Shown in pieces: positions 32,822 through 57,595 of a stretch of 64,000 bases of DNA. The translations under genes and the position numbers were made by a program. Origin of the DNA: Patescibacteria group bacterium (GTDB taxonomy: Bacteria > Patescibacteriota > Patescibacteriia > UBA9570). The stretch spans positions 104,720 through 168,719 of the forward strand of contig JBAYIY010000001.1 in NCBI GenBank assembly GCA_041665365.1, read 5' to 3'. The notes under the pieces are model-generated. The model searched no databases, was not told where the DNA came from, and saw only the letters and a list, made by a program, of their open reading frames with translations. How positions within the stretch are numbered: the first letter of the stretch is position 1; each line of letters starts with the position of its first letter.

Positions 32822-32907
32822 TAAAATATAGTTTAATACTTAAACAAGTGTTAAACTTATACCACGCCATAATTTATCTGTCTAGAGCAAGAGTTCTTTC
32901 TGATATC

Positions 32908-33040
32908 GAGCTGGCTTGCCAGCCGGAGTAACGAACCTTGTGAGTTACGTAGGCTGGACGTACTGGTCTAGAACCTAGACCACCGAGGGTTTACTTGGGT
33001 TAAATTCGGAGTTACCAACAGGGTTGTTGGGTCACCTAAA
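32908..33040. repeat. Island repeat R1: degenerate tRNA-Gln 3'-end-like segment with hairpins (GCTGGCTTGCCAGC; GGTCTAGAACCTAGACC)
   Basis: Near-identical to 36017-36150 (R3) and partially to 34994-35052 (R2). Confidence 0.6.
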
Positions 33041-33066
33041 TGAGACAAACGAGACAGTATAAAAAG

Positions 33067-33120
33067 GATATCATACTGTCTCGATTGCGACTAGAAAAAA
33101 GCCTAGACTTGTGAGGGGTA
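33067..33120 (-). promoter_or_regulatory. Conserved about 50-bp intergenic motif, copy B (downstream of heliorhodopsin 1, upstream of ArsR gene)
   Basis: GATATCATACTGTCTCGATTGCGACTAGAAAAAAGCCTAGACTTGTGAGGGGTA. Preceded by the inverted repeat GAGACAGTAT(33051-60)/ATACTGTCTC(33073-82). Confidence 0.4.
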
Positions 33121-33142
33121 TTGTTGCGTAATATGCTGTAAA

Positions 33143-33913
33143 CTATACAGGGCGTAATGTACCGGCAAACACCTGCCAGGCCAGTAAAGATTTCGCCACC
33201 AGACTTAGGATAATATACACTTTTTCGCCATAGGTATACTCTTTCCATTTCCCGATTTTCTTATATTGCAATAACATATTCACTGCAAATGAATTGAAGA
33301 AGAGAAACATCGAGAAAAAAATCCAATACACAAAGGTGGGTGCATGATGATCCGCATCACCGGAAAAGGCTAAATAGCACGCAATCACAATCCAAGGGAT
33401 AGCTCCTGCAATGCAGCCAAAGATATAGGCTGTCCAATCAGTTTTTTTGGTAGATTGATTATGCAATTCCATCATCCAGCCAAACAAAATCATCATGGCA
33501 TTTAAGCCAAACATCAGCAGCAAACTAAATACATCATAGATACCAACCAACATACCAATCACTACAATCATCAGCGACGAGCTCAGTGAATATTCAACCC
33601 AACGAGCATAGTTCGCGCCCTTTTTTAAATGGTTCACATACCATTCATAGATACCGGGTAACGACACCATTAAATGTGCTAGGGCCGACAAGGCAAAAAA
33701 ACCTGCCACCAGGGGCCCTACCGATACAGTAGTTAACTCTTGCAAATTTTGTTGCAGCGTGAAGTTTTGAGTATTGAAACTTAAAAATGCAGTCGTTAGT
33801 GGTACTGCAAACGAATTGCTCAATACCAGTACAGCGACAGCTTGCACGGCATGCAAACAAAACATGACGATATTCCAGCGTCGCAAATTAAGAAATGTAT
33901 TTGGGTTCGGCAT
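33143..33913 (-). CDS. Heliorhodopsin (paralog 1)
   Basis: 256 aa, 7 TM. Heliorhodopsin family signatures: LRRWNIVMFCLHAVQA, ARWVEYSLSSSLMIVVIGML, MILFGWMME, FGCIAGAIPW, LFFNSFAV, YIILSLVAKSLLAWQVFAGTL (putative Schiff-base Lys in TM7). Confidence 0.85.
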   Translation of the reverse strand: MPNPNTFLNLRRWNIVMFCLHAVQAVAVLVLSNSFAVPLTTAFLSFNTQNFTLQQNLQELTTVSVGPLVAGFFALSALAHLMVSLPGIYEWYVNHLKKGANYARWVEYSLSSSLMIVVIGMLVGIYDVFSLLLMFGLNAMMILFGWMMELHNQSTKKTDWTAYIFGCIAGAIPWIVIACYLAFSGDADHHAPTFVYWIFFSMFLFFNSFAVNMLLQYKKIGKWKEYTYGEKVYIILSLVAKSLLAWQVFAGTLRPV

Positions 33914-33938
33914 AGTCCTCCGTATGCTTAATGATAAA

Positions 33939-34973
33939 TTAATTATTTACGGCTTGTACGATAATATAGAGCACCAATGCAGTAGTAATAGTAGCAGAGA
34001 CCATCATGCCAATAAATAATTGCCGTTTAATTGGTTTGGCCGAAAAACCTGAAAACTGACTCAAGTCATCAAGCTCTTTTACGTTAGCTACTAATTCATC
34101 TTTGGTTAAAATAGTACTTTTGCTGACATAACTATCGGTCACAAAGTGTTGAGCATAGGGAAAACACACCACTTGAATTGGTTGTGGTTCAAATAAACCT
34201 GGATACCAGCTATTGGTTTCAACTGTGACGTGTTCAAGCGGAATGCGTAGCGCCTGTTCAACTTCTAATGGATCAAACTGCAGCGAAAATACATTCGATT
34301 TACCATCCGATACGTTTGTACCATAATCGATCGATAAATTGCCTTCCAACCATAGTCGTTGATCGAGCGGCCACATGGTTCCAGCGGTACTATCTGCTTC
34401 TACGACGAGTTTACGAGAAGCATCGTCACGTTCCATATGTACGAGCACCTTGCCATGATGCGTAGTGGTCATCACTGAATTTGTGCTATTGGCATTCACT
34501 AAACCATGTTTGGGATCATAACTATTGGTATTGGTATCGTAATCTACAATCACCCAACTGAGTAACCCGGTGTGTTTATTTTCTGCAATCACATACATTT
34601 CAATTCTACTTCCCCAGAAGGCACTGGTATGGGCGGTCACGCAACCAAAAATAATATAGTACTCTGGTTCATCGTCAGCAAATATTTTGGTTTTGATCAT
34701 TTCATAATCTGCCGAGATTAAACTTTGTGCTAAGGCAACATTTTTAAGTTTATAACACAAAAACAGACTATACGGCTCCACCACAAAACCCATGTGCGGG
34801 ATGGTCTTGGCAGTACTGGTCATCAACTTCTTTTGAATTGGCTTGGGAATAAGCTTGGTAAAGGAATTTAAAAAGCTAATTGCCACCACGTCGGTTGGTT
34901 TCACTAAACGTTCTACACCTTTAATAAATTGAGTTGTGTCGATTTCCTCCATGATTGATGAGTAGTATAGCAC
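33939..34973 (-). CDS. Hypothetical protein with C-terminal TM anchor, co-transcribed upstream of heliorhodopsin 1
   Basis: 344 aa with no recognisable motif. Hydrophobic C-terminal segment FIGMMVSATITTALVLYIIVQA. A 25-bp gap separates it from the HeR start. Confidence 0.45.
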   Translation of the reverse strand: MLYYSSIMEEIDTTQFIKGVERLVKPTDVVAISFLNSFTKLIPKPIQKKLMTSTAKTIPHMGFVVEPYSLFLCYKLKNVALAQSLISADYEMIKTKIFADDEPEYYIIFGCVTAHTSAFWGSRIEMYVIAENKHTGLLSWVIVDYDTNTNSYDPKHGLVNANSTNSVMTTTHHGKVLVHMERDDASRKLVVEADSTAGTMWPLDQRLWLEGNLSIDYGTNVSDGKSNVFSLQFDPLEVEQALRIPLEHVTVETNSWYPGLFEPQPIQVVCFPYAQHFVTDSYVSKSTILTKDELVANVKELDDLSQFSGFSAKPIKRQLFIGMMVSATITTALVLYIIVQAVNN

Positions 34974-34984
34974 ATATCAATGAC

Positions 34985-35073
34985 GAGGACTTTTGAGAGG
35001 GTGAGGTTAGCTGGCTTGCCAGCCGGAGTAACGAACCTTGTGAGTTACGTAGGCTGGGGCGGTAGGGTTCGAA
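34985..35073. repeat. Island repeat R2 ending in an exact 21-bp copy of the tRNA-Gln 3' end (GCTGGGGCGGTAGGGTTCGAA, 35053-35073)
   Basis: GAGGACTTTTGAGAGG...GTAGGCTGG followed by CTGGGGCGGTAGGGTTCGAA, identical to 57466-57486. Confidence 0.7.
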
Positions 35074-35141
35074 AATCACCTTTGATTTCGAAGCTCATCC
35101 TAAATTATCAATAAATACCAGTGTCGCAGGTTAGTCGAGCA

Positions 35142-35681
35142 TCACAATGACGGTGTAGAAATGACGGCTTTGATCTGTGTGGAGTTGGCATGCCACCAGG
35201 CTCGGATCTCATCGGCTTTGCCGACCCCGCTAAACTGATTGACGGAAAATGCATTGCCTGCAAGCGCTGCTTGTTCGAGCTGTCTGCGCAGTTCTCCACC
35301 CACTCTGGAAGCTGCGTAGGAAGATATAGTTGTATTCAAGGCATCGTTTGACATCTCTCCCGTGAACATAATCGTACCGGTTGTCATCGTTGCGGAGTCC
35401 GTTGCCCCCATTGCGTTGAGTGACACGATGTCTGGGCTCCCATCGGCGGCGAGAAGGTCATGCAATTCAGATGCCTTCTCGGGTACGACCAAGCGGACAA
35501 GTACTTCTACCTGATCAGTGCCCTGACTCGCCAACATCGCGTCGAGATTCTGCTCGTACGCCGTCGCACCAAACGGTGGTTCTCCATTGCTTGCCGGCTG
35601 TGACGGAAGCCCAATTTTACAGCCAGTCGTGAGGCCGAGAAGGATGACGACGGTGGCGTACGCATATGTTCGCATAGGCAT
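35142..35681 (-). CDS. GC-rich lipoprotein, hypothetical
   Basis: 179 aa with lipobox LGLTTGCKI. Local GC is about 55%, far above the background. Confidence 0.45.
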   Translation of the reverse strand: MPMRTYAYATVVILLGLTTGCKIGLPSQPASNGEPPFGATAYEQNLDAMLASQGTDQVEVLVRLVVPEKASELHDLLAADGSPDIVSLNAMGATDSATMTTGTIMFTGEMSNDALNTTISSYAASRVGGELRRQLEQAALAGNAFSVNQFSGVGKADEIRAWWHANSTQIKAVISTPSL

Positions 35682-35756
35682 ATTTTAGGCCTGGAAAGCC
35701 AGTGCTGTCAACAGCCCGCGGAGACGGGCTATACAACCTGACAGGTCCAGAACCTA

Positions 35757-36000
35757 GACCACCAAGGCTTTATCGGTCAGCTTATTCCGGGTCTCTTGGC
35801 CAAGCATGCGCTTCTCGATCCATTTGTCTGATCTGCCTAGTTCCTGCCAATTTTCTCGAGCTCGATTAAGACCCAACTCTGGATCAACAGTTTCTTGTAA
35901 GCGCTCATAACCAACTTTAGCTAGCCATTGTTTAAATGGTTCTGCTTTACTAAAATACCATTTCTCCTCGGCTTCAGCCCAAATACGACGGACTGGGCTA
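35757..36000 (-). pseudogene. C-terminal gene remnant (about 80 codons, no start codon)
   Basis: The reverse frame translates to SPVRRIWAEAEEKWYFSKAEPFKQWLAKVGYERLQETVDPELGLNRARENWQELGRSDKWIEKRMLGQETRNKLTDKALVV*. The open frame runs into repeat R3 at about 36003. Confidence 0.3.
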
Positions 36001-36003
36001 TAT

Positions 36004-36160
36004 GAGGACTTTTGAGAGGGTGAGGTTAGCTGGCTTGCCAGCCGGAGTAACGAACCTTGTGAGTTACGTAGGCTGGACGTACTGGTCTAGAACCTAGACC
36101 AGTCGGGGTTTATTGGGATTAGATTTCGAGTTACCTACAGGGTTGATGGGTCACCTAAAT
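36004..36160. repeat. Island repeat R3 (same as R1 plus the GAGGACTTTTGAGAGG head)
   Basis: GAGGACTTTTGAGAGGGTGAGGTTAGCTGGCTTGCCAGCCGGAGTAACGAACCTTGTGAGTTACGTAGGCTGGACGTACTGGTCTAGAACCTAGACC...GGGTCACCTAAATGAGAC. Confidence 0.6.
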
Positions 36161-36185
36161 GAGACAGTTGAGACACTATAAAAAG

Positions 36186-36238
36186 GATATCACGTTGTCT
36201 CAGTTGCGACTAGAAGAAGCCTGGACTTGTGAGGAGTA
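36186..36238 (-). promoter_or_regulatory. Conserved about 50-bp intergenic motif, copy C (downstream of heliorhodopsin 2)
   Basis: GATATCACGTTGTCTCAGTTGCGACTAGAAGAAGCCTGGACTTGTGAGGAGTA. Confidence 0.35.
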
Positions 36239-36260
36239 TAGTGGCGTAATATTCTGCACT

Positions 36261-37031
36261 TTATACTGGACGTAATGTACCGGCAAATACTTGCCAAGCC
36301 AAGAGTGATTTAGTCACCAAACTCATGACAATATACACTTTTTCACCATAGGTATAATCTTTCCATTTCCCGACTTTCTTGTATTGCAATACCATATTTA
36401 TCGCAAAACTATTGAAGAAGAGGAACATCGAGAAGAAAATCCAGTAGACAAAGGTTGGGGCTTTAAATTCTCCTTCTCCAGCAAACGCTAAATAGCAGGC
36501 GATGATAATCCACGGAATGGCACCAGCAATGCAACCAAAGATGTATGCTGTCCAGTCCGTTTTTTGTGTGGATTGATTATGTAGCTCCATCATCCAACCA
36601 AACAGAATCATCATGGCATTCAAACTAAACATCAGCACCAGGCTAAAAACGTCATACATGCCGGTCAACATCGCAATGACCACAATCATTAACGACGAAC
36701 TGAAGGTATACTCTACCCAGCGAGCATAGTTAGCCCCTGACTTTAAATTCTTCACATACCATTGATACACACCAGGCAATGAAACTATTAAGTGGGCCAA
36801 AGCTGACAGGGCTAAAAATCCAGCAATTAACGGGGCAATCGGTACTGTGGTCAGTTGCTGTAAATCTTGGCCGAGACTGCGCGTTTGCGGATTAAATTCA
36901 ACAAACAATGTCGTCAACGGTAACGCAAAGCTATTACTGACTACCAGCATGATTGTGGCTTGGATTGAATGCAGGAAGAACATCGCAATGTTCCACCGGC
37001 GTAAGTTACGAAACTTGTTAGTTATTGGCAT
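36261..37031 (-). CDS. Heliorhodopsin (paralog 2)
   Basis: 256 aa with the same signatures as paralog 1 (LRRWNIAMFFLHSIQA, ARWVEYTFSSSLMIVVIAML, FGCIAGAIPW, YIVMSLVTKSLLAWQVFAGTLRPV). The 3' coding end and about 250 bp downstream are near-identical to paralog 1. Confidence 0.85.
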   Translation of the reverse strand: MPITNKFRNLRRWNIAMFFLHSIQATIMLVVSNSFALPLTTLFVEFNPQTRSLGQDLQQLTTVPIAPLIAGFLALSALAHLIVSLPGVYQWYVKNLKSGANYARWVEYTFSSSLMIVVIAMLTGMYDVFSLVLMFSLNAMMILFGWMMELHNQSTQKTDWTAYIFGCIAGAIPWIIIACYLAFAGEGEFKAPTFVYWIFFSMFLFFNSFAINMVLQYKKVGKWKDYTYGEKVYIVMSLVTKSLLAWQVFAGTLRPV

Positions 37032-37076
37032 AATCGTCCTCCTAAGTAGTGTATAAAATACTAGGCTTAGGATTAA

Positions 37077-37127
37077 GATATCATATTGTCTCGATTGCGA
37101 CTAGAAAAAACCTAGACTTGTGACGGC
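37077..37127 (-). promoter_or_regulatory. Conserved about 50-bp intergenic motif, copy D (about 50 nt upstream of heliorhodopsin 2 start; GGAGGA RBS follows)
   Basis: GATATCATATTGTCTCGATTGCGACTAGAAAAAACCTAGACTTGTGACGGCA. Confidence 0.4.
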
Positions 37128-37145
37128 ATGGCGGCGTAATACGAA

Positions 37146-38117
37146 CTAGCTTTTTTGAGTATGGTGATTAGCCTTTACGCTCTGATGGGCGTCCTGTAGT
37201 AAGGATTTTAGGGTAGAGGCAAAGGTTGGATGACCTAATAACTGTGGTAACTGTATGCTGCGAATCTCATCTGGCAAAGACAAGTTGGCAAATACTGACA
37301 CCTGACTCATTTTTAATTCTTCTACCGGAACAATATCAAGTAAAGAACCCTGCCTTTGCTCAAAGCGTTCTACTAGCTTAGTTAATTCCTGCTTAAACTC
37401 TTCGGGATATTGTTTAACATAACGTTTGTTCGTGAACCCTACTCTGCTAGCCAATTGAATGATATCTTGCGGTTGTATATTCTCACCTAAAAATCTACGA
37501 ATGAGAAGTACCTCGTTGGAAGTACCCTCTAGCATTGATAAATTATTTTGCGCAAAATCAATCCTTTTTTTATGAATAATAGCAACCATTAAGGCTTGCT
37601 GAGCGTAGGATCGGAAAGTCCCTTTATCATGATGATTTAATAATCTCAAAATTTCTTCAGCGGCCAAATCAAAATTACCAACCAGCAACTGACGCTCAAG
37701 ACCATAGTAGTATAAAAAGACATAACTTAGATTAGTTTCTTGAGTGACATCCCGCAACCAATTAATATATTGATACCGTTGTTCAGGCGTAAGTCCAGTA
37801 TATGATGGATAGTAAAGCTTATCCTGTTCAAGCTCATCATTTTGCTCCACTGGTAATTGCGTCCAAATTAAACTGGGTTCAGCAAAAAAATTATGTCGAT
37901 CTGGTATGTTAGTCCTTATACCGTCTGGACCCAGACTAATAGTGATATTGATGGTAGTGGCGGATTGAATTTTAGATGGGGGTTCATCTGTAAACCAAAG
38001 TAAGGACAGCGTAGGTTGAGGTATATGAAAAGAATTACGCAGTATAGACGGTATACTTGGCACTAGCGCTTGGTGCCTTGGAATTAAAGGTGAAAAAAGC
38101 TTTTTGAAAATGTTCAT
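37146..38117 (-). CDS. Hypothetical protein (last gene of five-gene defence-like operon)
   Basis: 323 aa. Its start overlaps the stop of the upstream HEPN-like gene by 4 nt. No confident domain; a TerB-N-like assignment is only a guess. Confidence 0.4.
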   Translation of the reverse strand: MNIFKKLFSPLIPRHQALVPSIPSILRNSFHIPQPTLSLLWFTDEPPSKIQSATTINITISLGPDGIRTNIPDRHNFFAEPSLIWTQLPVEQNDELEQDKLYYPSYTGLTPEQRYQYINWLRDVTQETNLSYVFLYYYGLERQLLVGNFDLAAEEILRLLNHHDKGTFRSYAQQALMVAIIHKKRIDFAQNNLSMLEGTSNEVLLIRRFLGENIQPQDIIQLASRVGFTNKRYVKQYPEEFKQELTKLVERFEQRQGSLLDIVPVEELKMSQVSVFANLSLPDEIRSIQLPQLLGHPTFASTLKSLLQDAHQSVKANHHTQKS

Positions 38118-38866
38118 TTTATAGATTCAAAATATTTTCTTGCTGCGCTTGTAAAATACAGGTAATCTTTTACTGCATTATAAACATTTTTCTGCTCTTC
38201 TTTGGAACAAGCAAATAAATGATTATTTTTAGACCAAAACCCTTGTTTAAACATTATGGATTTCTTTTTTACTTTCCCAAAATATAGATTCTTCCAAACT
38301 AAATTGCCTCTCTCAATATGATGCTTGCTACTCTTATCTTTTAGAATACCTTCCAAATAACCATTCGTGAAATAATTAGCACTATTATTGGCTGTGTTTT
38401 CTTCTAACTTCTTCCAGCCGATTTTTTTGATAAAATGATTGATACGTTGAGTATCACTACAGCTAAAAAATCTCAACTGCCAAACAAGTTCATCTAAAAC
38501 TAGTAACCAAGATCGTTTAGCATAAAATGGGAAATCAGGATAGCGAACAAAGTTATAAACACTTAAGTTCTTTACCAAATCAAGGCACTCTTTGTAGATG
38601 TTAAAAGATGGAATATTAGATTTACATAAATTATACAAATACTCTAGTTCATGCCATTGATTACCAGTTGCATTTCTGGGAACTTTTACGCCGTTGTATA
38701 AAAGTATCGATTTCAAATATTTCTCAATACTTTGATGAGCTAAAGTAAGGAACTGATCCAAGCACTGGTTGCGGAACAGTGTACGTGCAGCAATGTAGTC
38801 TCTATCAGCATAGGATCTAAAATCACTAGCTATCGCATTTCTATGGATAATACTTTCGTCGATCAT
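38114..38866 (-). CDS. HEPN-domain-like protein
   Basis: 250 aa. N-terminal DRDYIAARTLFRNQCLDQFLTLAHQSIEKYLKSIL is the HEPN helix-pair pattern, plus RNATGNQWH (a loose Rx4-7H). Confidence 0.45.
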   Translation of the reverse strand: MIDESIIHRNAIASDFRSYADRDYIAARTLFRNQCLDQFLTLAHQSIEKYLKSILLYNGVKVPRNATGNQWHELEYLYNLCKSNIPSFNIYKECLDLVKNLSVYNFVRYPDFPFYAKRSWLLVLDELVWQLRFFSCSDTQRINHFIKKIGWKKLEENTANNSANYFTNGYLEGILKDKSSKHHIERGNLVWKNLYFGKVKKKSIMFKQGFWSKNNHLFACSKEEQKNVYNAVKDYLYFTSAARKYFESIK

Positions 38867-38897
38867 AATAAGTATTATAATCCTAGGTACATTTTAA

Positions 38898-40067
38898 TCA
38901 TAGCCGTATCTTAGAATGATCACTGCCAGTCACATCCCATTCATCCGTTTCTTTTTTTATCTTTGGTAATTTTAATAAACCTTTCTTGAGCCGAGATATG
39001 ACCAGCTGTTTAATAGCATCCTCTTGGTCATAACCATGTAAACGGCCTGTCAGTACTCCCATTCTAAAGGTTAAGCCTTCAGACATTAGTGACCAGTTGG
39101 TGGCCGCTAAATTCTTTTCAAGCAACCTGGTCAAAGTTCTGATGCTATCGTATGACTGGCGCGTTGATTCATCTTGGACTGAAAAGCCAATCTGCACATC
39201 TTTACTAATCGCCGGCTGTTCAAAAGTGATTTGAGTATATTCGTTTTTTGTAGCTAGTGCCTCTACACGCTTGCGTAACTGCGGGACAGTGAGTCGTTCA
39301 ATGGACGCAATTAATTCATAAAGCCCCTTATGCTCTTCCTGTTCTTTGGCTTCATCGGTTATCTTTTTCATTTCTTCTAAATCTACCAGAAACTTCAAAT
39401 ACTCATGACCCTCTTCATCGGAAATGCAATATTTCTTACGCAATTTCTTAAACTCAATTTCACTCATTTCATCCTTTTTTTCTGTTTTTAAATCAAGCAC
39501 ATCTACAGTTTTGTGATGGCATTTCGTACAACGCTCTATAGTTGTAATAATATCTCCCTTACGTGATCGTTCTGTTTTAATTGTTTGCCGATGACAACGC
39601 ACACAAACTTTTGGTTGCGATACGTATTCAATGCCATCATGGTAGAAAGCCCGGCCCCGATGTTTACTTGGACAAGTGTAAAAGAATAAGACGACGTCTT
39701 TGCCGTCTCGATCAGTTAATGTTTTAAAGTCAGATTGTATAGACTCATGGCATGTGGAGCAGTAGATATTTTTTGGAGCAATTGCTGCTTCAAGTAACTG
39801 ATCCCGCACCCTGTCACGCTCCATCCATTCTTGGATTGTTTTTTCTTTGTTTTTCCATAGCTCACCTTTTTCAAAATACATTTGCAATTCAAGATTCATT
39901 TTTGAAAAAGTTTTATATTGCGCAAACTCAGGGGTTCCTTTCTTAAAATTTTTAGCTTCACTGACACGCTGCTGTGCATGCTCGATCATCTGACAATACT
40001 TGATAGTATGCAAGTCATATCTATCATCATAATGAGTTCTTTCTTTCAGCTCTCGTACAGTACCCAT
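38898..40067 (-). CDS. Zinc-finger protein, hypothetical
   Basis: 389 aa. CSTCHES...CPSKHRG...CVRCHRQ...CTKCHHK form repeated C-x2-C-H treble-clef-like knuckles. A coiled-coil middle region follows. Confidence 0.45.
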   Translation of the reverse strand: MGTVRELKERTHYDDRYDLHTIKYCQMIEHAQQRVSEAKNFKKGTPEFAQYKTFSKMNLELQMYFEKGELWKNKEKTIQEWMERDRVRDQLLEAAIAPKNIYCSTCHESIQSDFKTLTDRDGKDVVLFFYTCPSKHRGRAFYHDGIEYVSQPKVCVRCHRQTIKTERSRKGDIITTIERCTKCHHKTVDVLDLKTEKKDEMSEIEFKKLRKKYCISDEEGHEYLKFLVDLEEMKKITDEAKEQEEHKGLYELIASIERLTVPQLRKRVEALATKNEYTQITFEQPAISKDVQIGFSVQDESTRQSYDSIRTLTRLLEKNLAATNWSLMSEGLTFRMGVLTGRLHGYDQEDAIKQLVISRLKKGLLKLPKIKKETDEWDVTGSDHSKIRL

Positions 40068-40082
40068 CTAAGCTTTGTACAA

Positions 40083-41180: not shown

Positions 41181-41189
41181 AAGTTCATT

Positions 41190-44749: not shown

Positions 44750-44751
44750 AT

Positions 44752-48793: not shown

Positions 48794-48837
48794 TCTCCAT
48801 AGTCAAGTGCCAATTATTATCTATCAACCAACTTAGG

Positions 48838-50331: not shown

Positions 50332-50684
50332 ATTTAAACAAGTTCACCCTTAAACGCTTTTTGCATCAATGCTTGAAATTGGGTTTCTATTTTTACAGAT
50401 TGAACATGCATGGTTTGTTTTAGGGATTCTGTTTTTTATAAAATTTGAGCAAATTTCGTTTAAAACTTAATAAGTCTATTTGTTGAATTCTGAATAATTC
50501 CAAGTTTCATAATGATTATATTACTCCCTAATCGGTAACATTACTAATGTAAAAAGGATGCCCCGGACACAATCGTGAGATCATGCCGGGGCGAAGTACA
50601 GGAACGGATCACGTTGCCGTGACGGTGTTCACTGTTGGTCTGCGTTGCAAAGAACGAGCTGCTGCACCGTAGCCTTCCTAGGGT

Positions 50685-53516
50685 CTACAACCCATAGCCA
50701 TAGCTGAAGGTCCAAACACCAGTCTGGCTCCCGTTGGGGGTGATGGTGTCGGTGCAGTGGAGCAGAGCACCTCGCACGACGCAGATGCCGTCAGTGCCAT
50801 CACCGTCGAAGTCCGCGAAGTACCACTGGCTATCCAAGGTGGTATCACCGAAGGTGAACCAGTAGTCGTAGACCCCAGAGGTATTGTCGTCGACGTAGAA
50901 CCGGTTACCTTCACGGAAGATCAGGTCAGCCAGGCCGTCACCGTTGAGATCGGCCAGGTAGTAGTCGTCGGCTCCGTTGCCCGTACCGTAGTACAGGTAG
51001 GTGTCCATGATACCGTCGAGATTGCGGTCGATCTGGAGCTGGCTGCCAAAGCGAGCTGCGATGGTAGTGTGCCAGTACAAGAACTGGTCAGCGGACACGT
51101 CCGCATAGACCAACACGTAGTCGGCGATGCCGTCGGCACCCATGTAGTCGTAGTAGCTGGTGCGGCCGGAACGCCAGATGATGTATTCTCCCGTTCCGAT
51201 CACTTCGCCCGGAACCGTCCACGTGCCGTAGAGGCCGTCGTAGAGGCAGAGCAAGGTGGTTGCACGCCGGACGCAGGGATCATCGTCACCGTTGCCGTCG
51301 AAGTCGAAGAAGATGTATTGATCCTCGAAGAGGAAATCTTCATCGATCTCGCCGTCACAGTCGTTGTCGAGGTCGTCGAGGAGTTCGGGAGCACCCGGAT
51401 AGGTGTGGTCAGCCGTGTCGTCGCAGTCGCCGTTGGTGCTGGACCAACCATCGTAGTCGTTGTCACCGACTTCGTCGGTCACCCCGTCACAATCGTTGTC
51501 GAGACCGTCGGGAATCTCTACGGCATAGGGGTTGATGTTGTTGCTCTGTTCGGAGCAGTCACCCTGGTCGTAGGACCAACCGTCACCGTCGAGGTCGAAG
51601 GCTTCGTCGATCAGGGCATCACAGTCGTTGTCGAAGGTGTCCCACAGTTCCGGGGCACCCGGGTAGGTGTGGTCGGCCGTGTCGTCGCAGTCGCCGTCGT
51701 CGGGGGTGTAGGAGTCGTAGTCCTGATCCAGATCGTTGTCAGCCACTTCGATGTAGACGAATGGAGCAGTGCAGTCAGACTGCAGACCACCAAAGTTGCC
51801 GAACAGCAACGTGCCATCCGTCGGCAGGTTGCTGACGATGTCCTGCTGATCTCCCTGTTCTTCGAAGGTCGTGGCACTGGTGTGCTGACCCAAGTAGAGC
51901 GTGCCGGAACTGTTCAGACGGAGCAGATCAGGGTAGTCGTCGTTGTAGTCGAGCGGGTAGACGAAGTAGTCTCCGTCGGTGCCACCGACATCGTTGGCCA
52001 TCGTACTGACACTCAGCCACTGCAGCGTGCTGCTGTACTGGGCCAGGTAGGCTTCCACGGTGCTGTTCGTTTCGTCGATCCGCAGGAAGTCGTCCCGGCC
52101 ATCGGCATCGGCATTGAGGTTCGACACGAGGTAGGTGTTGCTGGGTGAACCCCAACCGGTCGCGATGGTCGCACTGTTTCCAGTTGTATCCAAGCGCTGC
52201 CAGCCCAGTTCGACTCCACCGCTGTTGGTGGTGCCGACCAGGATTTCACCCTTACCGTTACCGTTGAAGTCTCCGACCAAGAAGTGACTGTCGGTGGAAC
52301 CGAAGGACTCACTCCAGGTGGTCAGGTCAGCGAAGTCGCTGCCGATGTTGGTGCCGATCCGCCACTTGATGCTGCTCCCATTGGGATAGCCGAGTACCAG
52401 GTCCAGATCGTCGTCGTTGTCCATGTCGGTCAGGAAGGCGTGGCTGTAGCCGTTGTTGGCCTTCAGCCAGCGATCGCGACCGACGAAGGTGCCATCACCG
52501 TTGCTGACGTACACCTGAACGTAGGTGTAGTTGCCGTTGTCCGTGACGTTGACGATATCGTCGTTACCGTCATTGTCCAGGTCGCCTACCAGCCAGGTGT
52601 TGACGTTGTTGGTGTTGCCCAGGCCAGTCATGGTGTAGCTACTGTCGGGCAGCTTGAGGCTGACGCTGTTCCCAGAACCGGTGTGGTAGTAGGGTTTGAT
52701 GGTGAAGGTGTGGGTACTGGCGTCTGCGGTGACGGTGAGCAGGTGAATGGTGTAAACGTCGGAGGTGCAGGTGGAGACTTCGGCATTGTAGGTCGGAGGA
52801 CAGCTGGCCCAGAGGTAGTCTGAGTCAGTTGCTGCATCGCAGTCGAAGTCCGAATGCTGGCTGGAAGTGCCTTCGTTGGGACAGCCATTCGGGATATCAC
52901 AGCAGGTAGCGTTGTCGTCATTGAGGTTGTAGGGATCGAGCCAGTAGTCATGACTGAGGTACTGAAGTGATCCGTAGTCCTGAACGCCGAAATGGAGATG
53001 CGCGCCGTCAGAGTAGCCCGAGTTACCCATTTGACCGATGAGGGTGTTGGAACTGACGGAGTTGCCGACCGCCACGGTGATAGAACCAGACACGAGATGA
53101 GTGTACTTGGTGGTGTAGTCGTAGATGCTGTCACCATCCACATCATGCTTGATATCCACGAAGCAGCCCCAAGTAGGATTTCCATTGGGGTACGTATTAG
53201 GACAGTCACTGTTCTGGATATTAGACACGACACCAGAAGCGGCGGCGTAGACGTTGTCGCCTTCGTCGCCGTCGAAGTCATATCCACCGTGGCTCGCGGG
53301 CAACGGATAATAATCGACTTCATACTGCGCGGCAGAACAACTCACACTGTAGTTCCAGGCACCGCCATTGATCTCGACGCTGTTGTTGTGGATCGGCAGA
53401 ACGAAGGGACCATAGGCCAGAGCCTTGGTGGTGGGCAAGAAGAAGCCCAGGATCATGAGAAGCAGAACGAACAGAGGCTTGCGCATTGGAGTTTCCTTTT
53501 GACTTTGAATTGTCAA
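50685..53516 (-). CDS. GC-rich secreted multidomain protein: M23 peptidase + FG-GAP/VCBS-like repeats + MopE-like Cys-rich repeats
   Basis: 943 aa, signal peptide. M23 motif HLVSG...GQMGNSGYSDGAHLHFGVQDYG. FG-GAP-like repeats LVGDLDNDGNDDIV, FLTDMDNDDDLDLVLG, LVGDFNGNGKGEILVG. Repeats YPGAPELWDTFDNDCDALIDE and YPGAPELLDDLDNDCDGEIDE. GC is about 58%. All overlapping ORF-track ORFs in this span are antisense artefacts. Confidence 0.65.
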   Translation of the reverse strand: MTIQSQKETPMRKPLFVLLLMILGFFLPTTKALAYGPFVLPIHNNSVEINGGAWNYSVSCSAAQYEVDYYPLPASHGGYDFDGDEGDNVYAAASGVVSNIQNSDCPNTYPNGNPTWGCFVDIKHDVDGDSIYDYTTKYTHLVSGSITVAVGNSVSSNTLIGQMGNSGYSDGAHLHFGVQDYGSLQYLSHDYWLDPYNLNDDNATCCDIPNGCPNEGTSSQHSDFDCDAATDSDYLWASCPPTYNAEVSTCTSDVYTIHLLTVTADASTHTFTIKPYYHTGSGNSVSLKLPDSSYTMTGLGNTNNVNTWLVGDLDNDGNDDIVNVTDNGNYTYVQVYVSNGDGTFVGRDRWLKANNGYSHAFLTDMDNDDDLDLVLGYPNGSSIKWRIGTNIGSDFADLTTWSESFGSTDSHFLVGDFNGNGKGEILVGTTNSGGVELGWQRLDTTGNSATIATGWGSPSNTYLVSNLNADADGRDDFLRIDETNSTVEAYLAQYSSTLQWLSVSTMANDVGGTDGDYFVYPLDYNDDYPDLLRLNSSGTLYLGQHTSATTFEEQGDQQDIVSNLPTDGTLLFGNFGGLQSDCTAPFVYIEVADNDLDQDYDSYTPDDGDCDDTADHTYPGAPELWDTFDNDCDALIDEAFDLDGDGWSYDQGDCSEQSNNINPYAVEIPDGLDNDCDGVTDEVGDNDYDGWSSTNGDCDDTADHTYPGAPELLDDLDNDCDGEIDEDFLFEDQYIFFDFDGNGDDDPCVRRATTLLCLYDGLYGTWTVPGEVIGTGEYIIWRSGRTSYYDYMGADGIADYVLVYADVSADQFLYWHTTIAARFGSQLQIDRNLDGIMDTYLYYGTGNGADDYYLADLNGDGLADLIFREGNRFYVDDNTSGVYDYWFTFGDTTLDSQWYFADFDGDGTDGICVVRGALLHCTDTITPNGSQTGVWTFSYGYGL

Positions 53517-53620
53517 CGTACTATCTTGCTGTAGCCTTGTATGGCGAGCAAGTCAGGGTGAGGATTCACCGCTGAAGCCATCTCATCAATCCGGTGCTGA
53601 TGAGATGAATCAGGAGTGAA

Positions 53621-54388
53621 TTAGAATTGTAAAGAGTTCAATAGTGTGTCAGGATCTATACCGGTAGCGGCTTCATCTGTTAACCTAATTTCTAATGTTT
53701 TTTCGTCTGAGTCTAAGTAATAATACTCAGCTACATCTTGAAGTTTATGGTCTTCATCGACTGGATAATTACCAGTTAGTCCTTGCACTCTAAAATTTTC
53801 TCCATAATATTGCTGGACTGAGTAGGTAGTTTCATTGACTACATTGTCATAACTACCGTCTGGCCTGGGTCCGAGTACAGATTGAACAGAATTGATTTCA
53901 CTCGTTGTTGGGTGAGCAACAATACTATCGAAAAGAGTAATTCTTACTGGATCTATCTGTAAATCAGTTCTATCAATCATAAATACAGCGCCGGCATCGT
54001 CAATAAAGTCGGCTCGGGTTGATTTACTAACACTTACTGAATAAATTTTTGGATACTTAAAACTAAACCCATACTCCTCATTCGTATAAGTTAGCCAATC
54101 GCTGGTATCGAGAACCCCTTCATCAACTGTGACTTGCTCCCAATCACTAGTATCTACTTCACTTACTATTTCTGTATTTGTATTCTCATTGGTTAAATTG
54201 GTATTTTCATTAACTACAGTGACATTTATATTTTCGTTGGTATTCACTTCGGCATTTGTATTCACTGGGTTTACATTAACAATCTCATTAGTGACGGCCA
54301 CCGTATTTACATTCGTCGATGGACCCGCACACCCAGTCAGTGTCAGAGCAAAAACTGCTGCTGTAGTTAAAAATAGTTTTTCTTTCAT
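53621..54388 (-). CDS. Lipoprotein with N/T/V-rich low-complexity linker, hypothetical
   Basis: 255 aa. Lipobox LTLTGCAG and an NVNTVAVTNEIVNVNPVNTNAEVNTNEN linker. Confidence 0.45.
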   Translation of the reverse strand: MKEKLFLTTAAVFALTLTGCAGPSTNVNTVAVTNEIVNVNPVNTNAEVNTNENINVTVVNENTNLTNENTNTEIVSEVDTSDWEQVTVDEGVLDTSDWLTYTNEEYGFSFKYPKIYSVSVSKSTRADFIDDAGAVFMIDRTDLQIDPVRITLFDSIVAHPTTSEINSVQSVLGPRPDGSYDNVVNETTYSVQQYYGENFRVQGLTGNYPVDEDHKLQDVAEYYYLDSDEKTLEIRLTDEAATGIDPDTLLNSLQF

Positions 54389-54433
54389 AGGTATTTATTA
54401 ATAAGGTGTGTTAGAGAACAAATATTTACATAT

Positions 54434-55204
54434 CTAATAAATTCTTTCCGGATACCTGACCATTTCACCTATAGTCTTTTCCGGCACCTTAACAACATGA
54501 TTCTGTATATAGGTAAGTAACTGGCTATTGGACATGACAGTCAAATCATCAATCTCATCGATATCTGGAATAAAATATAATTTACCATCACTCTCGGCTG
54601 CCATGATGACACGTCCAACTAAACGTTGCTGTAAATTATCATATAGTTCCTCACGACCCATAAGAACATCACTACAAGCTGCTCCCTCGCCATAGTCTAG
54701 ACAAGCTAGTGCTTGAATATCTAAATCTGATGCAGGCGTAACACGAGAATCACCTTTAATCGCAGTTTCTAAAAACGCCGAATAAATGTTTTTTAATTTC
54801 AATTTGTGTTTATAACCATCAGCTACCCAGTAATATCTATTTTTTTTAACCTGATAAAAACCATCAGGTAAATATCTGTAACGTATTGGTAAAATATCAG
54901 AGGTATCTACCAAGTACATTTCCCCAGCATGCTGGGCACGTAAAATAACTCTGCCTTCTAAATCCTCCCATATAGGGTCACACAATCGTCCTAATGCAGT
55001 TGTGATTGCATCACTAGATGCGCTGTCGGCTACATTGTAACAACGACTATCTAACAACTCTTTATAAGAAGATTCACTAATACCAATGATGTCAGGGGTA
55101 AGATTAACCACTGCCATAGCGTTAGTTAAGGATGGTAGTACTAACGCAAGTACCAATAAACTAGCAGTTAGGGTGGAAATGAGGATGGTTTTGGGTTGGG
55201 TCAT
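54434..55204 (-). CDS. Secreted hypothetical protein
   Basis: 256 aa with an N-terminal signal/TM. Confidence 0.4.
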   Translation of the reverse strand: MTQPKTILISTLTASLLVLALVLPSLTNAMAVVNLTPDIIGISESSYKELLDSRCYNVADSASSDAITTALGRLCDPIWEDLEGRVILRAQHAGEMYLVDTSDILPIRYRYLPDGFYQVKKNRYYWVADGYKHKLKLKNIYSAFLETAIKGDSRVTPASDLDIQALACLDYGEGAACSDVLMGREELYDNLQQRLVGRVIMAAESDGKLYFIPDIDEIDDLTVMSNSQLLTYIQNHVVKVPEKTIGEMVRYPERIY

Positions 55205-55348
55205 AGGGTCGTATAGATGAAAAAACGTCCAGTAACAGCTACAGATGGTTAGATCTGCATATTGTTAAGGTGGACGCCTTTAAGATTGTTAATAAAATGT
55301 ACCTCAAGTATAGCACGCGCCCATACGGTGTACAGGGTATTAATAAGC

Positions 55349-56122
55349 TCATTCGCTTCGACCTACTACCACATTATTATGCTGCGTAACAAGCTCTGGT
55401 TTAATCTTTTGACGCTTAAAAATCGTATTGGGAACACCAGGTTGTTCAAACGCTATTTTTTCAACAATAATCTGGTAAATGGATGCAAAAATATCCTCGT
55501 CAGAAAATGTTAGTCCAGCTTTCTTTTTGAGGGCACGGCGTAAGAGATTACCAACCTCTGTGGAATAAAGGTACTTGCACAGATTATTTGGCTCGAGTGC
55601 CTGAAACCGAAGCCAGAAATCATCCAGCTCATTTTTCAACATGCTGCGTTTGGTCATCATCGCAAAATACTCAATGGATTGTTTGAGTTGGGCTTTATCC
55701 TTGAGGTCAAATGAACAGATGCGTTTATGCGTAATCGGTTTTTTAAAGACTACTCGATACAGTGAAAAGACTCTGCCGTTAGTGAGTAACACCCAGTCTA
55801 CACCTTCATTAGCGGCATAATTAATGGATTGGTAAATATGCTTATCCGACAAATCAATCTGGATAGCTTTCACTTCAACGATGATATACTTTTTGCGTTG
55901 GACTTGGATAATGTAATCAGCGTAGGTATTATTGATCTGGTACTCTGTTTTAATCTCATCCAGTTCAGCATAACCCAGTACCTCTGTTAGAAAACTATTA
56001 ATCATCAGGCGAGTAGCTGACTCATCTAACGTCTCGTATTTCTTCGACAGGTAACGCTTAGCATACTCTTTGAGTCGTTTAGCTATTTGGTCTTTTTGAG
56101 TTTGTGTAGGCATAGTGATCAA
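55349..56122 (-). CDS. Restriction-endonuclease-like (PD-(D/E)xK, HsdR-N/Mrr-type) protein
   Basis: 257 aa. ADYIIQVQRKKYIIVEVKAIQIDL (D...EVK core) plus VDWVLLTNGRVFSLY. Confidence 0.45.
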   Translation of the reverse strand: MITMPTQTQKDQIAKRLKEYAKRYLSKKYETLDESATRLMINSFLTEVLGYAELDEIKTEYQINNTYADYIIQVQRKKYIIVEVKAIQIDLSDKHIYQSINYAANEGVDWVLLTNGRVFSLYRVVFKKPITHKRICSFDLKDKAQLKQSIEYFAMMTKRSMLKNELDDFWLRFQALEPNNLCKYLYSTEVGNLLRRALKKKAGLTFSDEDIFASIYQIIVEKIAFEQPGVPNTIFKRQKIKPELVTQHNNVVVGRSE

Positions 56123-56125
56123 AAG

Positions 56126-57058
56126 TTATAAGGAAAGCATTAACTCACCCTCAACTAGTCCAGCACGAATGCTCGGGTGGATAGATTGGTATTCAGTATT
56201 ATCCTGCATAGTTTGGTAGATGGGCTGAAACTCTAAGTTTTCCCAGTTAAACTTTTCAAATGTCTCTTTTCCCATCTGCAAACCAACTGCATCTTTTATA
56301 GATTCAGCTCCAAATTCGTCAACGAATGGCACCTGGTAAGAGATGTCAACATACTCTACCCCATCAACCCTGAAAGCCTCCTGACCAAATTTGATGAAGT
56401 CAGTATATGTATCTTCGACTAAGTCTTGCTCGTCCCAAAAGGTATCTTGTGTACGTGTTAGCCATGCTGTCTTATATTCCTCGTCCCATTGCACATCATA
56501 ACCATTGCGTGTCCTGATGCTATCGTCTAAAGCAATCCAGAGTTTATCTAGTGTCGTTGGTTCCGGCTTAGGTTCTTCTTTGACTTCTTCAACCACAGCG
56601 GGAGCAACTTCTTCTTGAACGGGTTCCTGGACCACATTGGTATTTGATACAACGGGAGCATTAACTACATCTGCCGTATTGGTATCTTCGTTTGGTACCA
56701 CTTCGTTCGTATTCACTACTGCGTTAGTAGCTACGTTGGTATTCTTATTAGTGTTTTGAGCTATTTTAGCTGTATTGTCCGTCGAGCTCGGAAAAGTAAA
56801 TATTGATGCTGCAATGAAAAACGTACCTATAAAGAAAGCCATGAGACGAGGTATTTTTTTATGAATTATACTCTCAAACCATTGACGTGATGGTGGAAGC
56901 AGTAACAACCCGAGCAGTAGCATGGCTAGTCCTGATACAATGCTGCTAAACACGAGCAAGATACTGATGAATATAATGACGATGCCAAATACCCATCCAA
57001 GGATGTGGTTACCTTCTTTGGCGGAAGGTGTTGTGACTTGCGAATTTTCGCTGGCCAT
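56126..57058 (-). CDS. Membrane protein with N/T/V-rich low-complexity region, hypothetical
   Basis: 310 aa with two N-terminal TMs. NTNKNTNVATNAVVNTNEVVPNEDTNTADVVNAPVVSNTNVV. Confidence 0.45.
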   Translation of the reverse strand: MASENSQVTTPSAKEGNHILGWVFGIVIIFISILLVFSSIVSGLAMLLLGLLLLPPSRQWFESIIHKKIPRLMAFFIGTFFIAASIFTFPSSTDNTAKIAQNTNKNTNVATNAVVNTNEVVPNEDTNTADVVNAPVVSNTNVVQEPVQEEVAPAVVEEVKEEPKPEPTTLDKLWIALDDSIRTRNGYDVQWDEEYKTAWLTRTQDTFWDEQDLVEDTYTDFIKFGQEAFRVDGVEYVDISYQVPFVDEFGAESIKDAVGLQMGKETFEKFNWENLEFQPIYQTMQDNTEYQSIHPSIRAGLVEGELMLSL

Positions 57059-57384
57059 ATTGTTGTGTAGTTAGGGATTTGTTAGATTGGTTCAGAAAAC
57101 ACAAAGGGTCCCCTGAACCAGCGACAGCCCTTACGGAACTGCCACCCATCCTTTCGAATGGGTACCCTAACTACAAGATGCTGATCAGGAGACCTTCTCT
57201 ACGTAGTTAGGGATTTATAACCATGCCGCTGGAAATCAACGGTTTAGGCCATTAAATTGTATTTAAAGTATAGCTTGAAAAGCACCAGAAAGAAAGTCTG
57301 GGATTTTGAAGTTACCAACAATCACCCCATTCAAGCCACGTGCAAGCATGTGGGGTTTTAGACCCAAACTGGGACACTGACTCA

Positions 57385-57413
57385 CAAAACAAAAATCCTC
57401 GCGGTGTACGAGG
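57385..57413 (-). terminator. Rho-independent terminator downstream of tRNA-Gln
   Basis: Minus sense reads CCTCGTACACCGCGAGG (hairpin) followed by ATTTTTGTTTTG. Confidence 0.5.
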
Positions 57414-57466
57414 ACTTTTGAGAGGATGAGGTTGATGGGTCACCTCCAGAACTTTCTGAAATCAAG

Positions 57467-57539
57467 CTGGGGCGGTAGGGTTCGAACCTACGAAATGGCG
57501 GCGCCAAAGGCCGCTGCCTTACCACTTGGCTACGCCCCA
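57467..57539 (-). tRNA. tRNA-Gln(UUG): tRNA-Gln (anticodon TTG)
   Basis: Reverse complement TGGGGCGTAGCCAAGTGGTAAGGCAGCGGCCTTTGGCGCCGCCATTTCGTAGGTTCGAACCCTACCGCCCCAG. It has a U1:A72 start, as in E. coli tRNA-Gln. Anticodon stem GCGGC/GCCGC, loop CUUUGGC, and a GTTCGAAC T-loop. CCA is not encoded. Confidence 0.8.
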
Positions 57540-57595
57540 ATGTAAATAAACGCTATTTGTATATACCATATACTTGTTTTGTGTTCAAGTGATTA

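Follow-up and report, generated by a model that had tools for sequence, protein, structure and literature searches.

The window analysed here, a stretch of 64,000 nucleotides (nt) from contig JBAYIY010000001.1 of a Patescibacteria group bacterium (assembly GCA_041665365.1), contains an intact tRNA-Gln(UUG) gene, the 3' end of which, at position 57466, faces an island of diverse genes (Table 1). Starting from the tRNA, the island consists of a second tRNA trailer that includes an intrinsic terminator, a LOOT RNA, the gene of a membrane-anchored protein, a variable cargo region, a large serine recombinase gene, a backbone of methylase and terminase (TerL, TerS) genes, another cargo region that ends with a heliorhodopsin gene (heliorhodopsin-2) and a conserved left-end block; beyond this block follow repeats, a remnant and a further heliorhodopsin gene (heliorhodopsin-1). 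The island is likely to be composite, its main part being one intact-looking element of about 21.4 kb that belongs to a conserved family. This element, hereinafter E2, spans 36077-57465, with cores at 36072-36076 and 57466-57470. The same arrangement is sampled in the 365-kb metagenome contig k141_1447249 (ENA ERZ27249449), in Logan SRR6484324 and in JGI 3300037810.

Table 1. Features of the island and of its flanks, in window coordinates unless another contig is named (L004, closest relative with a long contig; L171-L174, contigs with related elements; L205, viral contig).
Feature	Position	Strand	Composition, basis or remark
Copy A: X, GCTGG (32953-32957) and second complete left-end block	32909-33145	+	Abuts the heliorhodopsin-1 stop codon
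Gene of 337-aa protein, then heliorhodopsin-1	33143-34952	-	Orthologues beside tRNA-Gln in L004
Junction B	34983-35073	+	Truncated head 34983-35008, X 35009-35052, tRNA 3' 21 nt 35053-35073
Remnant between junctions B and C	35074-36003		About 0.9 kb, flanked by a perfect 73-nt repeat
Chromosome-side arm of junction C	36004-36071	+	Truncated head (H) and X; with the core, right copy of the 73-nt repeat
Left-end block (copy C)	36072-36262	+	GCTGG core, pseudo-T-arm M (36077-36100), Q, P, hairpin, GCGTAATAT
Cargo region 1	36261-41750	-	Heliorhodopsin-2, TerB_N/SngA-like, HEPN, 389-aa CXXCH protein, Shedu SduA, 186-aa Zn-ribbon protein
Backbone	41770-46733	+	297-aa protein without assigned family, ParB-N6/N4 methylase, second methylase, TerS-like, TerL (Pfam, PHROGs)
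Large serine recombinase (437 aa)	46807-48120	+	Pfam; phrog_95 integrase
Cargo region 2, variable	48117-56122	-	Pfam, PADLOC, PHROGs
310-aa membrane-anchored protein, LOOT companion	56126-57058	-	Homologues in L172 (35%) and L173 (41%) at equal position
LOOT RNA (RF03000)	57123-57250	-	Rfam
R2: element-borne tRNA trailer copy and intrinsic terminator (57420->57390)	57390-57465	-	Terminator scan
tRNA-Gln(UUG)	57466-57539	-	ARAGORN; Rfam, 61 bits
LOOT RNA copies in other contigs	L171 10710-10835; L172 17445-17576; L173 14924-15064; L174 11470-11595; L205 16354-16475

The element and its relatives

The serine recombinase is the only recombinase in the part of the window inspected for such genes, 27-64 kb, and there is no tyrosine integrase among the open reading frames (ORFs) scanned in this region. 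Its three domains, Resolvase (PF00239), Recombinase (PF07508) and Zn_ribbon_recom (PF13408), all score above threshold and make up the architecture of a large serine recombinase. The catalytic domain aligns with that of the TP901-1 integrase (PDB 3bvp) and contains an R-K-S motif versus R-V-S in TP901-1. The 310-aa ORF beside the tRNA was also considered, as a divergent tyrosine integrase, and rejected: it encodes a membrane-anchored protein.

The contigs that encode the nearest homologues of the recombinase (L171-L175; 68-74% identity, 72% in L171) were picked as the comparison set. L171 is interrupted by the contig end just upstream of the recombinase gene, so that its visible part starts with the recombinase and ends at the tRNA. 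In the other four, ParB-methylase, methylase, TerS, TerL and recombinase genes follow each other in the same order as in the window (48-74% amino acid identity; tblastn synteny), and a backbone of methylase(s), TerS, TerL and recombinase is present in at least 35 IMG/VR loci. The cargo on both sides of the backbone differs among L171-L175. TerL and the recombinase both retain their full length and are conserved; when the TerL sequences of the window and L172-L175 are aligned, they agree throughout in the Walker A motif and at many further positions. Relatives in the viral contigs were found with the TerL alignment; the recombinase as a single query retrieved none. Pfam identifies nothing in the 250-297-aa backbone proteins and, among L171-L175, no other recombinase except for the transposase of an insertion sequence (IS) in L174. 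Some members of the wider family (L182, L187, L189 and L210 from IMG/VR) possess two tandem TerL genes.

The ends of the element are shared with its relatives as well. A four-way alignment defines a left-end block of about 195 nt that is common to copy C (36072-36262) and copy A (32953-33145) of the window, L172 (1641-1834) and L174 (1929-2119), with an nhmmer E-value of about 1e-50, and that closes with a terminator-like hairpin followed by GCGTAATAT. In E2, this block abuts the stop codon of heliorhodopsin-2. At the other end, L171 10642-11136 matches window 57056-57541 (71%) and L174 15749-15937 matches window 57352-57541 (75%), both matches ending in a tRNA-Gln(UUG) gene on the same strand; L172 and L173 have a homologue of the 310-aa membrane protein together with the region upstream of it. 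Trailers homologous to R2 precede tRNA-Gln in L171 and L174 and are found at the right end of L172. The left-end block is thus present in the window, L172 and L174, and the right-end trailer lies beside the tRNA 3' end in the window, L171 and L174. Because these end blocks and the backbone are common to related contigs, the segment 36072-57470 represents one member of the family with defined ends.

In other subfamilies, identified in IMG/VR with a TerL profile, the recombinase gene is located 120-200 nt from the 3' end of tRNA-Ser(CGA) or tRNA-Glu(UUC) (L185 and L202), and this placement connects the recombinase family with the ends of tRNA genes in general. Another, less closely related recombinase (P0008, 58%) was examined as a further case at tRNA-Gln and discarded, as it is not beside a tRNA.

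An Rfam search identifies the LOOT RNA of the window with 71.3 bits, against a gathering threshold of 46.4, over model positions 1-121, that is, the full model. It lies 65 nt upstream of the membrane-protein gene 56126-57058, in the same orientation. LOOT copies scoring 53-77 bits occupy the corresponding place in L171-L174, and one more is found in the viral contig L205. Across the window and L171-L174, the RNA is located 65-165 nt upstream of a gene for a membrane-anchored protein in the same orientation (a homologous protein of 274-310 aa in three cases, a Zn-ribbon membrane protein in two), and in L174 the entire unit of LOOT and gene is inverted. This placement suggests that LOOT is a 5' leader or cis-regulatory element rather than a free-standing small RNA. 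That it is a native neighbour of tRNA-Gln was considered and rejected, since LOOT is absent from the tRNA-Gln loci of nine element-free relatives. The literature searched contains nothing on LOOT beyond its listing.

The cargo includes genes related to defence. In cargo region 1, the Shedu assignment is based on DUF4263/SduA_C (PF14082, 1.9e-24) and on the PADLOC SduA model (4.4e-30). The CXXCH, Shedu and 186-aa proteins are syntenic in L174 (42, 58 and 66% identity, respectively). The 186-aa protein occupies the position of a repressor: at this upstream position, L172, L173 and L202 encode an S24 (LexA/CI-like) repressor, and the window and L174 a Zn-ribbon protein of 176-186 aa. Cargo region 2 encodes a 497-aa protein (DUF8370/8371) similar to PDC-M36A, a candidate defence protein, as well as a GC-rich M23/FG-GAP/MopE protein, two secreted proteins without assigned family and an HSDR_N/PD-(D/E)XK protein. 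The same slot is filled with a type I restriction-modification (R-M) system in L171, metal resistance genes in L172, an nSTAND NTPase in L173 and an SMC-like ATPase in L174. Where the interval between TerL and the recombinase extends over several kb, it contains defence genes, not virion genes, e.g., a reverse transcriptase and a type III R-M pair in L202.

Two genes stand out by their composition in this genome of about 40% GC: 50685-53516 (58% GC), which encodes the 943-aa M23 peptidase/FG-GAP/MopE-motif protein with internal 132-nt tandem repeats (51325-51697), and 35142-35681 (52% GC). Both were probably acquired from a high-GC donor.

Junction sequences and the predicted integration site

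The first-pass annotation of this DNA had described the island as a product of serial integration into the tRNA 3' end, marked by one exact and three degenerate copies of a 21-bp core, each degenerate copy being preceded by a shared head. Much of the underlying description is borne out. The tRNA-Gln gene on the minus strand is real, and so is the copy of its 3' end: the 21-mer GCTGGGGCGGTAGGGTTCGAA is found at 35053-35073 and 57466-57486 in the same orientation and, even with three mismatches allowed, nowhere else, with no second copy expected by chance. The head, GAGGACTTTTGAGAGGRTGAGG, does follow the genuine tRNA (57410-57431), where it forms the 5' arm (57408-57433) of the canonical intrinsic terminator of tRNA-Gln, about 46 nt past the gene. 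It occurs only there and at 34985 and 36004, so that it precedes the exact 21-mer copy and the motif copy at 36081, not those at about 32962 and 35741. The three degenerate copies exist as a 32-nt repeat family (D7; 32962-32993, 35741-35772 and 36081-36112; 88% alike) containing GGTCTAGAACCTAGACC. They are not decayed duplicates of an att core; the hairpin motif is instead the arm that the element contributes to the left junction, a presumably attP-derived pseudo-T-arm, and it is conserved in elements of other genomes.

Longer repeats connect these sites. A block of 49 nt, X, is 100% identical at 32909, 35009 and 36028, and two pairs of perfect 73-nt repeats are present (34985-35057 and 36004-36076; 32909-32981 and 36028-36100). 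Copies A and C belong to paralogous segments of about 0.8 kb (32909-33706 and 36028-36824; 81% identical) that take in the 3' part of both heliorhodopsin genes and, accordingly, are not independent scars.

For comparison, all junctions were anchored on GCTG. The right junctions (T in the window; L171 and L174) read terminator hairpin, TTTTGAGG...GGGTC.C..., about 20 nt, GCTGG and tRNA. The left junctions (C and A in the window, L172, L174 and a scar in L004) read trailer-like arm, GCTG[G/A], 13 nt, GAACCTA and [G/C]ACC. The tRNA itself reads GCTGG, 13 nt, GAACCTA. With two anchors equal and equally spaced, the left arm imitates the acceptor/T-arm of the tRNA, the intervening 13 nt being different. 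Taken alone, the likeness of the hairpin motif to the T-arm is weak (15 of 29 positions, ungapped, counted by hand). The pattern GCTG[G/A]-N13-GAAYCTW has three matches in the window (the tRNA, copy A and copy C), against 0.03 expected, although it was derived after these sites had been seen; the left ends of the related elements in L172 and L174, both from other genomes, fit it independently.

The last five nucleotides of the tRNA (57466-57470, GCTGG on the plus strand) are the core in common with the left junction at 36072-36076, and nothing else is shared between junctions C and T, the arms of which are unrelated on both sides. In L172 and L174, the left junction has GCTGA and the right one GCTGG, which leaves GCTG as the only invariant block. 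If C and T are reciprocal products of one integration, the exchange must have taken place within GCTGG. Large serine integrases (phiC31, Bxb1, TP901-1) perform a 2-bp crossover inside a very short common core, and the identical repeats typical of tyrosine integrases at tRNA genes are much longer. From the 4-5-nt common core GCTG(G), we infer an attP x attB recombination by the recombinase, with a 2-bp crossover. The circular form would carry an attP of the structure [trailer copy]-GCTG-[pseudo-T-arm], predicted to join 57465 to 36077 (...TTTCTGAAATCAA-GCTGG-ACGTACTGGTCTAG...), and the empty attB is predicted to join 36071 to 57471 (...GAGTTACGTAG-GCTGG-GGCGGTAGGGTTCGAACC...). The first-pass annotation had proposed the 21-bp core as the substrate of the recombinase; if this enzyme acts here, it would exchange strands within GCTG(G), at the last bases of the tRNA gene. 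The tRNA would stay whole and the trailer alone would be replaced, which may be the rationale for the private trailer and terminator of the element.

Neither the 21-mer nor the M motif (CTAGRTTCTAGRCCAGTACGTCCAGC) has a match in the viral contigs. The M motif was not found in the metagenome contigs either, but this zero is weak because the motif is present in JGI 3300037810 (L088), a record that the collection evidently lacks. When 32500-37300 was scanned permissively with Rfam, the X/M repeats gave no known RNA. The combination of Q and M was considered as a pseudo-tRNA and dropped, as acceptor pairing is absent (by eye); X or Q-M-X as a miniature transposon was likewise rejected given the absence of terminal inverted repeats. 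X starts with AGCTGG and has GAACCTT 18 nt further; speculatively, it may be yet another truncated arm. A hairpin module of about 60 nt from the left-end block (GATATCAT..TGTCTCGATTGCGACTAGAAAAAA.CCTAGACTTGTGA) is also found at 29558-29608 and 37077-37146, downstream of two other minus-strand genes, one of them outside the island after a MopE-motif gene; this module is a dispersed terminator-like repeat. In L174, a Kerfeldbacteria element, an IS with an rve-family transposase and terminal inverted repeats of about 16 nt (556-1926) splits the left junction between the host trailer and GCTGA.

Host context and older layers of the island

The genes near the island include FtsE/X, a sortase and a SpaA-type surface protein, and tRNA-Gln(UUG) just downstream of ftsX is a conserved synteny in this lineage. 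The best FtsX relatives belong to Patescibacteria, e.g., Kerfeldbacteria and Falkowbacteria. Some closer FtsX records (L004, L005 and others) are titled 'uncultured Gammaproteobacteria', although their gene content and nearest named relatives are those of Patescibacteria; these labels are evidently wrong, and the taxonomy given in that set of metagenome-assembled genomes looks unreliable.

With an FtsX identity of 72%, L004 is the nearest relative represented by a long contig, and its tRNA-Gln locus continues with a small membrane ORF, a motif scar, a terminator, a heliorhodopsin gene and an orthologue of the 337-aa protein gene, which adjoins a gene resembling dihydroorotate dehydrogenase (by eye). 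The scar comprises 29 nt that are 90% identical to the hairpin motif of the window and its flank (GCTGGACGTACTGGCCTAGAATCTAGAGC, window plus strand). The heliorhodopsin is 86.7% identical to heliorhodopsin-1 and 75.8% to heliorhodopsin-2. The orthologues of heliorhodopsin-1 (87% amino acid identity) and of the 337-aa protein (65%) lie within 360 nt of tRNA-Gln, compared with a distance of 22.4 kb in the window. The tRNA and this gene pair appear to have been neighbours in the common ancestor, and this ancestral adjacency supports insertion at the tRNA in the window. For the comparison with relatives lacking the insert that the first-pass annotation suggested, L004 is an imperfect empty site: it is a different species, its gene orientation differs from that in the window and it carries a small scar of its own. 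From the same adjacency, the 337-aa gene and heliorhodopsin-1 probably are residents of the chromosome, so that the claim that everything between the repeat copies is cargo probably does not hold for this pair. That mobile DNA accreted at the tRNA-Gln 3' end is supported; the part of the serial-integration model that does not survive comparison with L171-L175 is the use of the 21-mers as the ends of one element, given that the main element has its ends at 36072 and at the tRNA, with only GCTG(G) common to both.

The 337-aa gene, which has no Pfam hit, directly precedes a heliorhodopsin gene in unrelated metagenome contigs as well (L096, L114 and L119). The two may form a conserved functional pair, the 337-aa protein possibly being a partner protein.

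Junction B differs from the junctions of E2. It contains GCTGG and 16 further tRNA nucleotides; the identity to the tRNA stops after TTCGAA in the T-loop and is followed by unrelated sequence. The right end of L172 is a junction of the same type, with a trailer, GCTGG and a tRNA-like fragment of about 22 nt ending in TTCGAAC. Junction B probably marks a different type of element, with a T-loop crossover in a long identical core, as with tyrosine integrases; junctions of at least two kinds are stacked at this locus. The exact pair of 21-mers would exist because B kept the original tRNA end of the chromosome and later insertions regenerated the tRNA, and this pair would not bound a single element.

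The remnant between B and C consists of a GC-rich ORF for a lipoprotein-like protein of 179 aa (35142-35681, minus strand), a partial M copy, D (35741-35772), and a startless frame of 83 codons (35754-36005, minus strand). A resemblance of the latter frame to DinD or Bro proteins was considered but is unsupported, as Pfam found nothing. Integration by exchange within a long identical stretch and later homogenisation fit the 73-nt bracket around the remnant equally.

To the left of copy A, at 32885-32908, lies trailer-like sequence (CGATATCAGAAAGAACTCT vs TTGATTTCAGAAAGTTCT directly after the real tRNA). Copy A could be the left junction of a still older, heliorhodopsin-carrying sister element, in line with the serial accretion of the first-pass annotation, or it could stem from conversion from heliorhodopsin-2; the balance tips slightly towards conversion, because the L004 orthologue is on the chromosome side of the scar, heliorhodopsin-1 is a mosaic and identity rises towards X and M. 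Specifically, the 5' third of heliorhodopsin-1 is 68-74% identical to L004 and 56-62% to heliorhodopsin-2, whereas its last 140 nt are 82-86% identical to heliorhodopsin-2 and 76-80% to L004; between A and C, identity climbs towards X+M, where it is 100% over 73 nt, with flanks of about 80%. An older degenerate left-junction scar is also present in L172 (170-310), 1.4 kb outside the L172 element.

Other traces of insertion at tRNA-Gln were encountered in this comparison. Tandem or duplicated tRNA-Gln genes are found in other Patescibacteria (L012, 2745-3273; L067, 12047-18651), as are 17-nt stretches identical to the tRNA-Gln 3' end, located 170-200 nt downstream of the gene (L009, 11225-11241; L025, 18158-18174); tRNA-Gln seems to be a recurrent integration target in this group. 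On the opposite side of the tRNA in the window, a gene for a DUF559 (Vsr-like) endonuclease (57681-58070) lies inside a 39-41-nt inverted repeat (57595-57633 and 58055-58095, 88%). This gene is missing between ftsX and tRNA-Gln in L004, L005 and L007, and the unit looks like a small separate insertion.

Alternative explanations and affinities of the family

Several observations weigh against the interpretation of E2 as an element integrated by its own recombinase. No empty site or element-free strain was found, and all three samples of the species show the identical integrated state. Contig ends in the samples, obtained by exact-protein look-ups (36072, 35014, 32953 and 57512), fall at repeats; they were considered as excision junctions and dismissed as repeat-induced breaks. 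A metagenome scan with the 337-aa protein yielded relatives of at most 55% identity, none of them usable as an empty site. No circular junction was found, and the predicted attP junction is unmatched in the viral contigs. The core of 4-5 nt is deduced from one junction pair per genome, and the reconstructed attB and attP, judged by eye only, lack obvious dyad symmetry. In the window subfamily, the recombinase gene is 9.3 kb away from the right junction, separated from it by cargo, the membrane-protein gene and LOOT. Neither a directionality factor nor a replication gene was identified in the element. The right end of L172 has no intact tRNA, only the tRNA-like fragment. Heliorhodopsin-1 lies 'inside' copy A, whereas its L004 orthologue is on the chromosome side of the scar, and simple serial integration does not explain the 73-nt identity (X+M in A/C; H+X in B/C) amid flanks of about 80%. 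Mobility, crossover site and packaging are all deduced by comparison, as is the order of events, and this is the main weakness of the proposal.

These difficulties have to be set against those of the alternatives. An island of 22.4-24.6 kb could have arisen by repeated integration of the tyrosine-integrase type that duplicated the 21-bp core, the hairpin motifs being decayed cores and all DNA between them cargo. Such a history would account for the exact 21-nt direct repeat in the right orientation, for the partial tRNA-Gln copies in relatives and for the break of junction B in the T-loop, where tyrosine-integrase sites reportedly often break. We nevertheless regard it as unlikely: no tyrosine integrase is among the ORFs scanned, two of the three motifs lack the head, both heliorhodopsin-1 and the 337-aa gene have their L004 orthologues on the chromosome side, and in other genomes the hairpin motif forms the conserved left end of a family of elements with a recombinase, so that it is no product of local decay. 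Moreover, the motif is 100% identical in A and C together with X, yet differs from the tRNA at 14 of 29 positions, and decay in situ would have hit X too. It is similarly improbable that there is no dedicated or active element at all, but a decayed prophage with segmental duplications, A, B and C having been produced by homologous recombination or gene conversion among heliorhodopsin paralogues and tRNA-trailer fragments. A pair of terminase genes, TerS and TerL, with no capsid genes could indeed be the remains of a deleted prophage, and the location of A and C inside a 0.8-kb paralogous segment, the mosaic heliorhodopsin-1 (5' part closer to L004, 3' part closer to heliorhodopsin-2), the perfect 73-nt repeats suggestive of recent homologous exchange and the identical state of all samples are compatible with this scenario. 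What speaks against it is that the capsid-less gene order, the end blocks and LOOT recur in different genomes with different cargo and neighbours, the gene order in at least 35 IMG/VR loci, and independent decay would not converge on such an order; furthermore, TerL and the recombinase have kept their full length and are conserved.

RecA-dependent homologous recombination between a trailer copy of about 60-100 nt and the host trailer, with the recombinase serving for inversion or resolution, could be invoked for L172, where the left and right trailer arms are about 90% alike over about 95 nt, and for the 26-nt head common to B, C and T in the window. This seems highly improbable, because the window arms beside the core (X vs GATGGGTCACCT...AATCAA) are unrelated and homology at the junction is limited to 5 nt, the recombinase has the full domain set of large serine integrases, and in other subfamilies the recombinase is directly beside the tRNA junction. 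Overall, the evidence is best compatible with a composite island that is dominated by one member of a serine-recombinase family.

The family can be compared with several known systems. Tycheposons of Prochlorococcus are cargo-carrying integrative elements that target tRNA genes (10.1101/2020.12.28.424599); they leave partial tRNAs and degenerate remnants and are stacked in tandem, newcomers displacing older ones deeper into the island (10.1101/2020.12.28.424599). Among 937 tycheposons, 27 use a large serine recombinase, and some are similar to phage-inducible chromosomal islands (PICIs) and contain TerS (10.1101/2020.12.28.424599). The likeness to the window family (targeting of tRNA, cargo, stacking) is drawn at the level of concept. 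Most tycheposons have tyrosine recombinases and replication genes (primase, helicase), whereas the window family has no recognisable replication module. Unlike tycheposons, it combines a ParB-methylase, a methylase, TerS, TerL, the LOOT RNA and a copy of the trailer and terminator, resides in Patescibacteria, and has ends that share GCTG(G) only instead of leaving a partial tRNA. In domain architecture and in the presumed very short attP/attB core, the recombinase resembles those of the phages TP901-1, A118, phiC31 and Bxb1. Integrases of this type typically target protein-coding or intergenic sites; in the window family, the presumed target is the last bases of a tRNA, attP would imitate trailer and T-arm, and virion genes are absent. 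Junction B is similar to classical tRNA islands of tyrosine integrases in its direct repeat of the 21 nt of the tRNA 3' end and its T-loop breakpoint but, unlike these, its layer has no integrase left and consists of about 0.9 kb between perfect 73-nt repeats.

Phage satellites (PICI, cf-PICI, P4-like) are small and possess an integrase, a repressor and packaging genes but no full virion module; they have hotspots filled with anti-phage defence genes. The window family has the same gene profile: an integrase, a gene at the repressor position, packaging genes, no complete virion module and slots filled with defence genes. The differences are that its packaging genes include TerL in addition to TerS, that its integrase is of the serine and not of the tyrosine type, that no capsid-redirecting, primase or AlpA-type genes were detected, and that Pfam and PHROGs show no replication domain in the backbone proteins, where PICI-like satellites have a replication module of their own. 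No helper phage was identified. The conservation of TerS and TerL in the absence of capsid genes suggests a satellite-like element, which would spread by packaging into the capsids of a helper phage. As a hypothesis, the family could be a phage satellite, its gene profile resembling that of a satellite or of a cargo-carrying integrative element. Only tentatively can it be proposed that these elements make up an undescribed class of satellites, widespread in Patescibacteria and present in many 'viral' contigs of IMG/VR, with a serine recombinase that would act at the discriminator end of a tRNA, an attP composed of trailer/terminator and pseudo-T-arm, TerS and TerL of their own for packaging into helper capsids, two slots for defence genes and the first genetic context for LOOT, as a 5' element of a membrane-protein gene carried by a satellite. 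The literature that could be searched contains no description of this element family, nor any report of Patescibacteria elements that have a serine recombinase and are located at tRNA genes.

In itself, an island with direct repeats at a tRNA gene is ordinary; the value of this one is in the element family that it exposes. Mobile elements and defence islands have so far been little mapped in Patescibacteria, and the precise anatomy of this family (end blocks, core, backbone and two cargo slots) makes it easy to search for. The proposed mode of integration would be an uncommon form of tRNA targeting, with a crossover at the last bases of the gene that replaces the trailer without duplicating the 3' half of the tRNA. 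In addition, an orphan RNA, LOOT, is tied to a defined genetic context, and heliorhodopsin genes can be cargo at the end of such elements.

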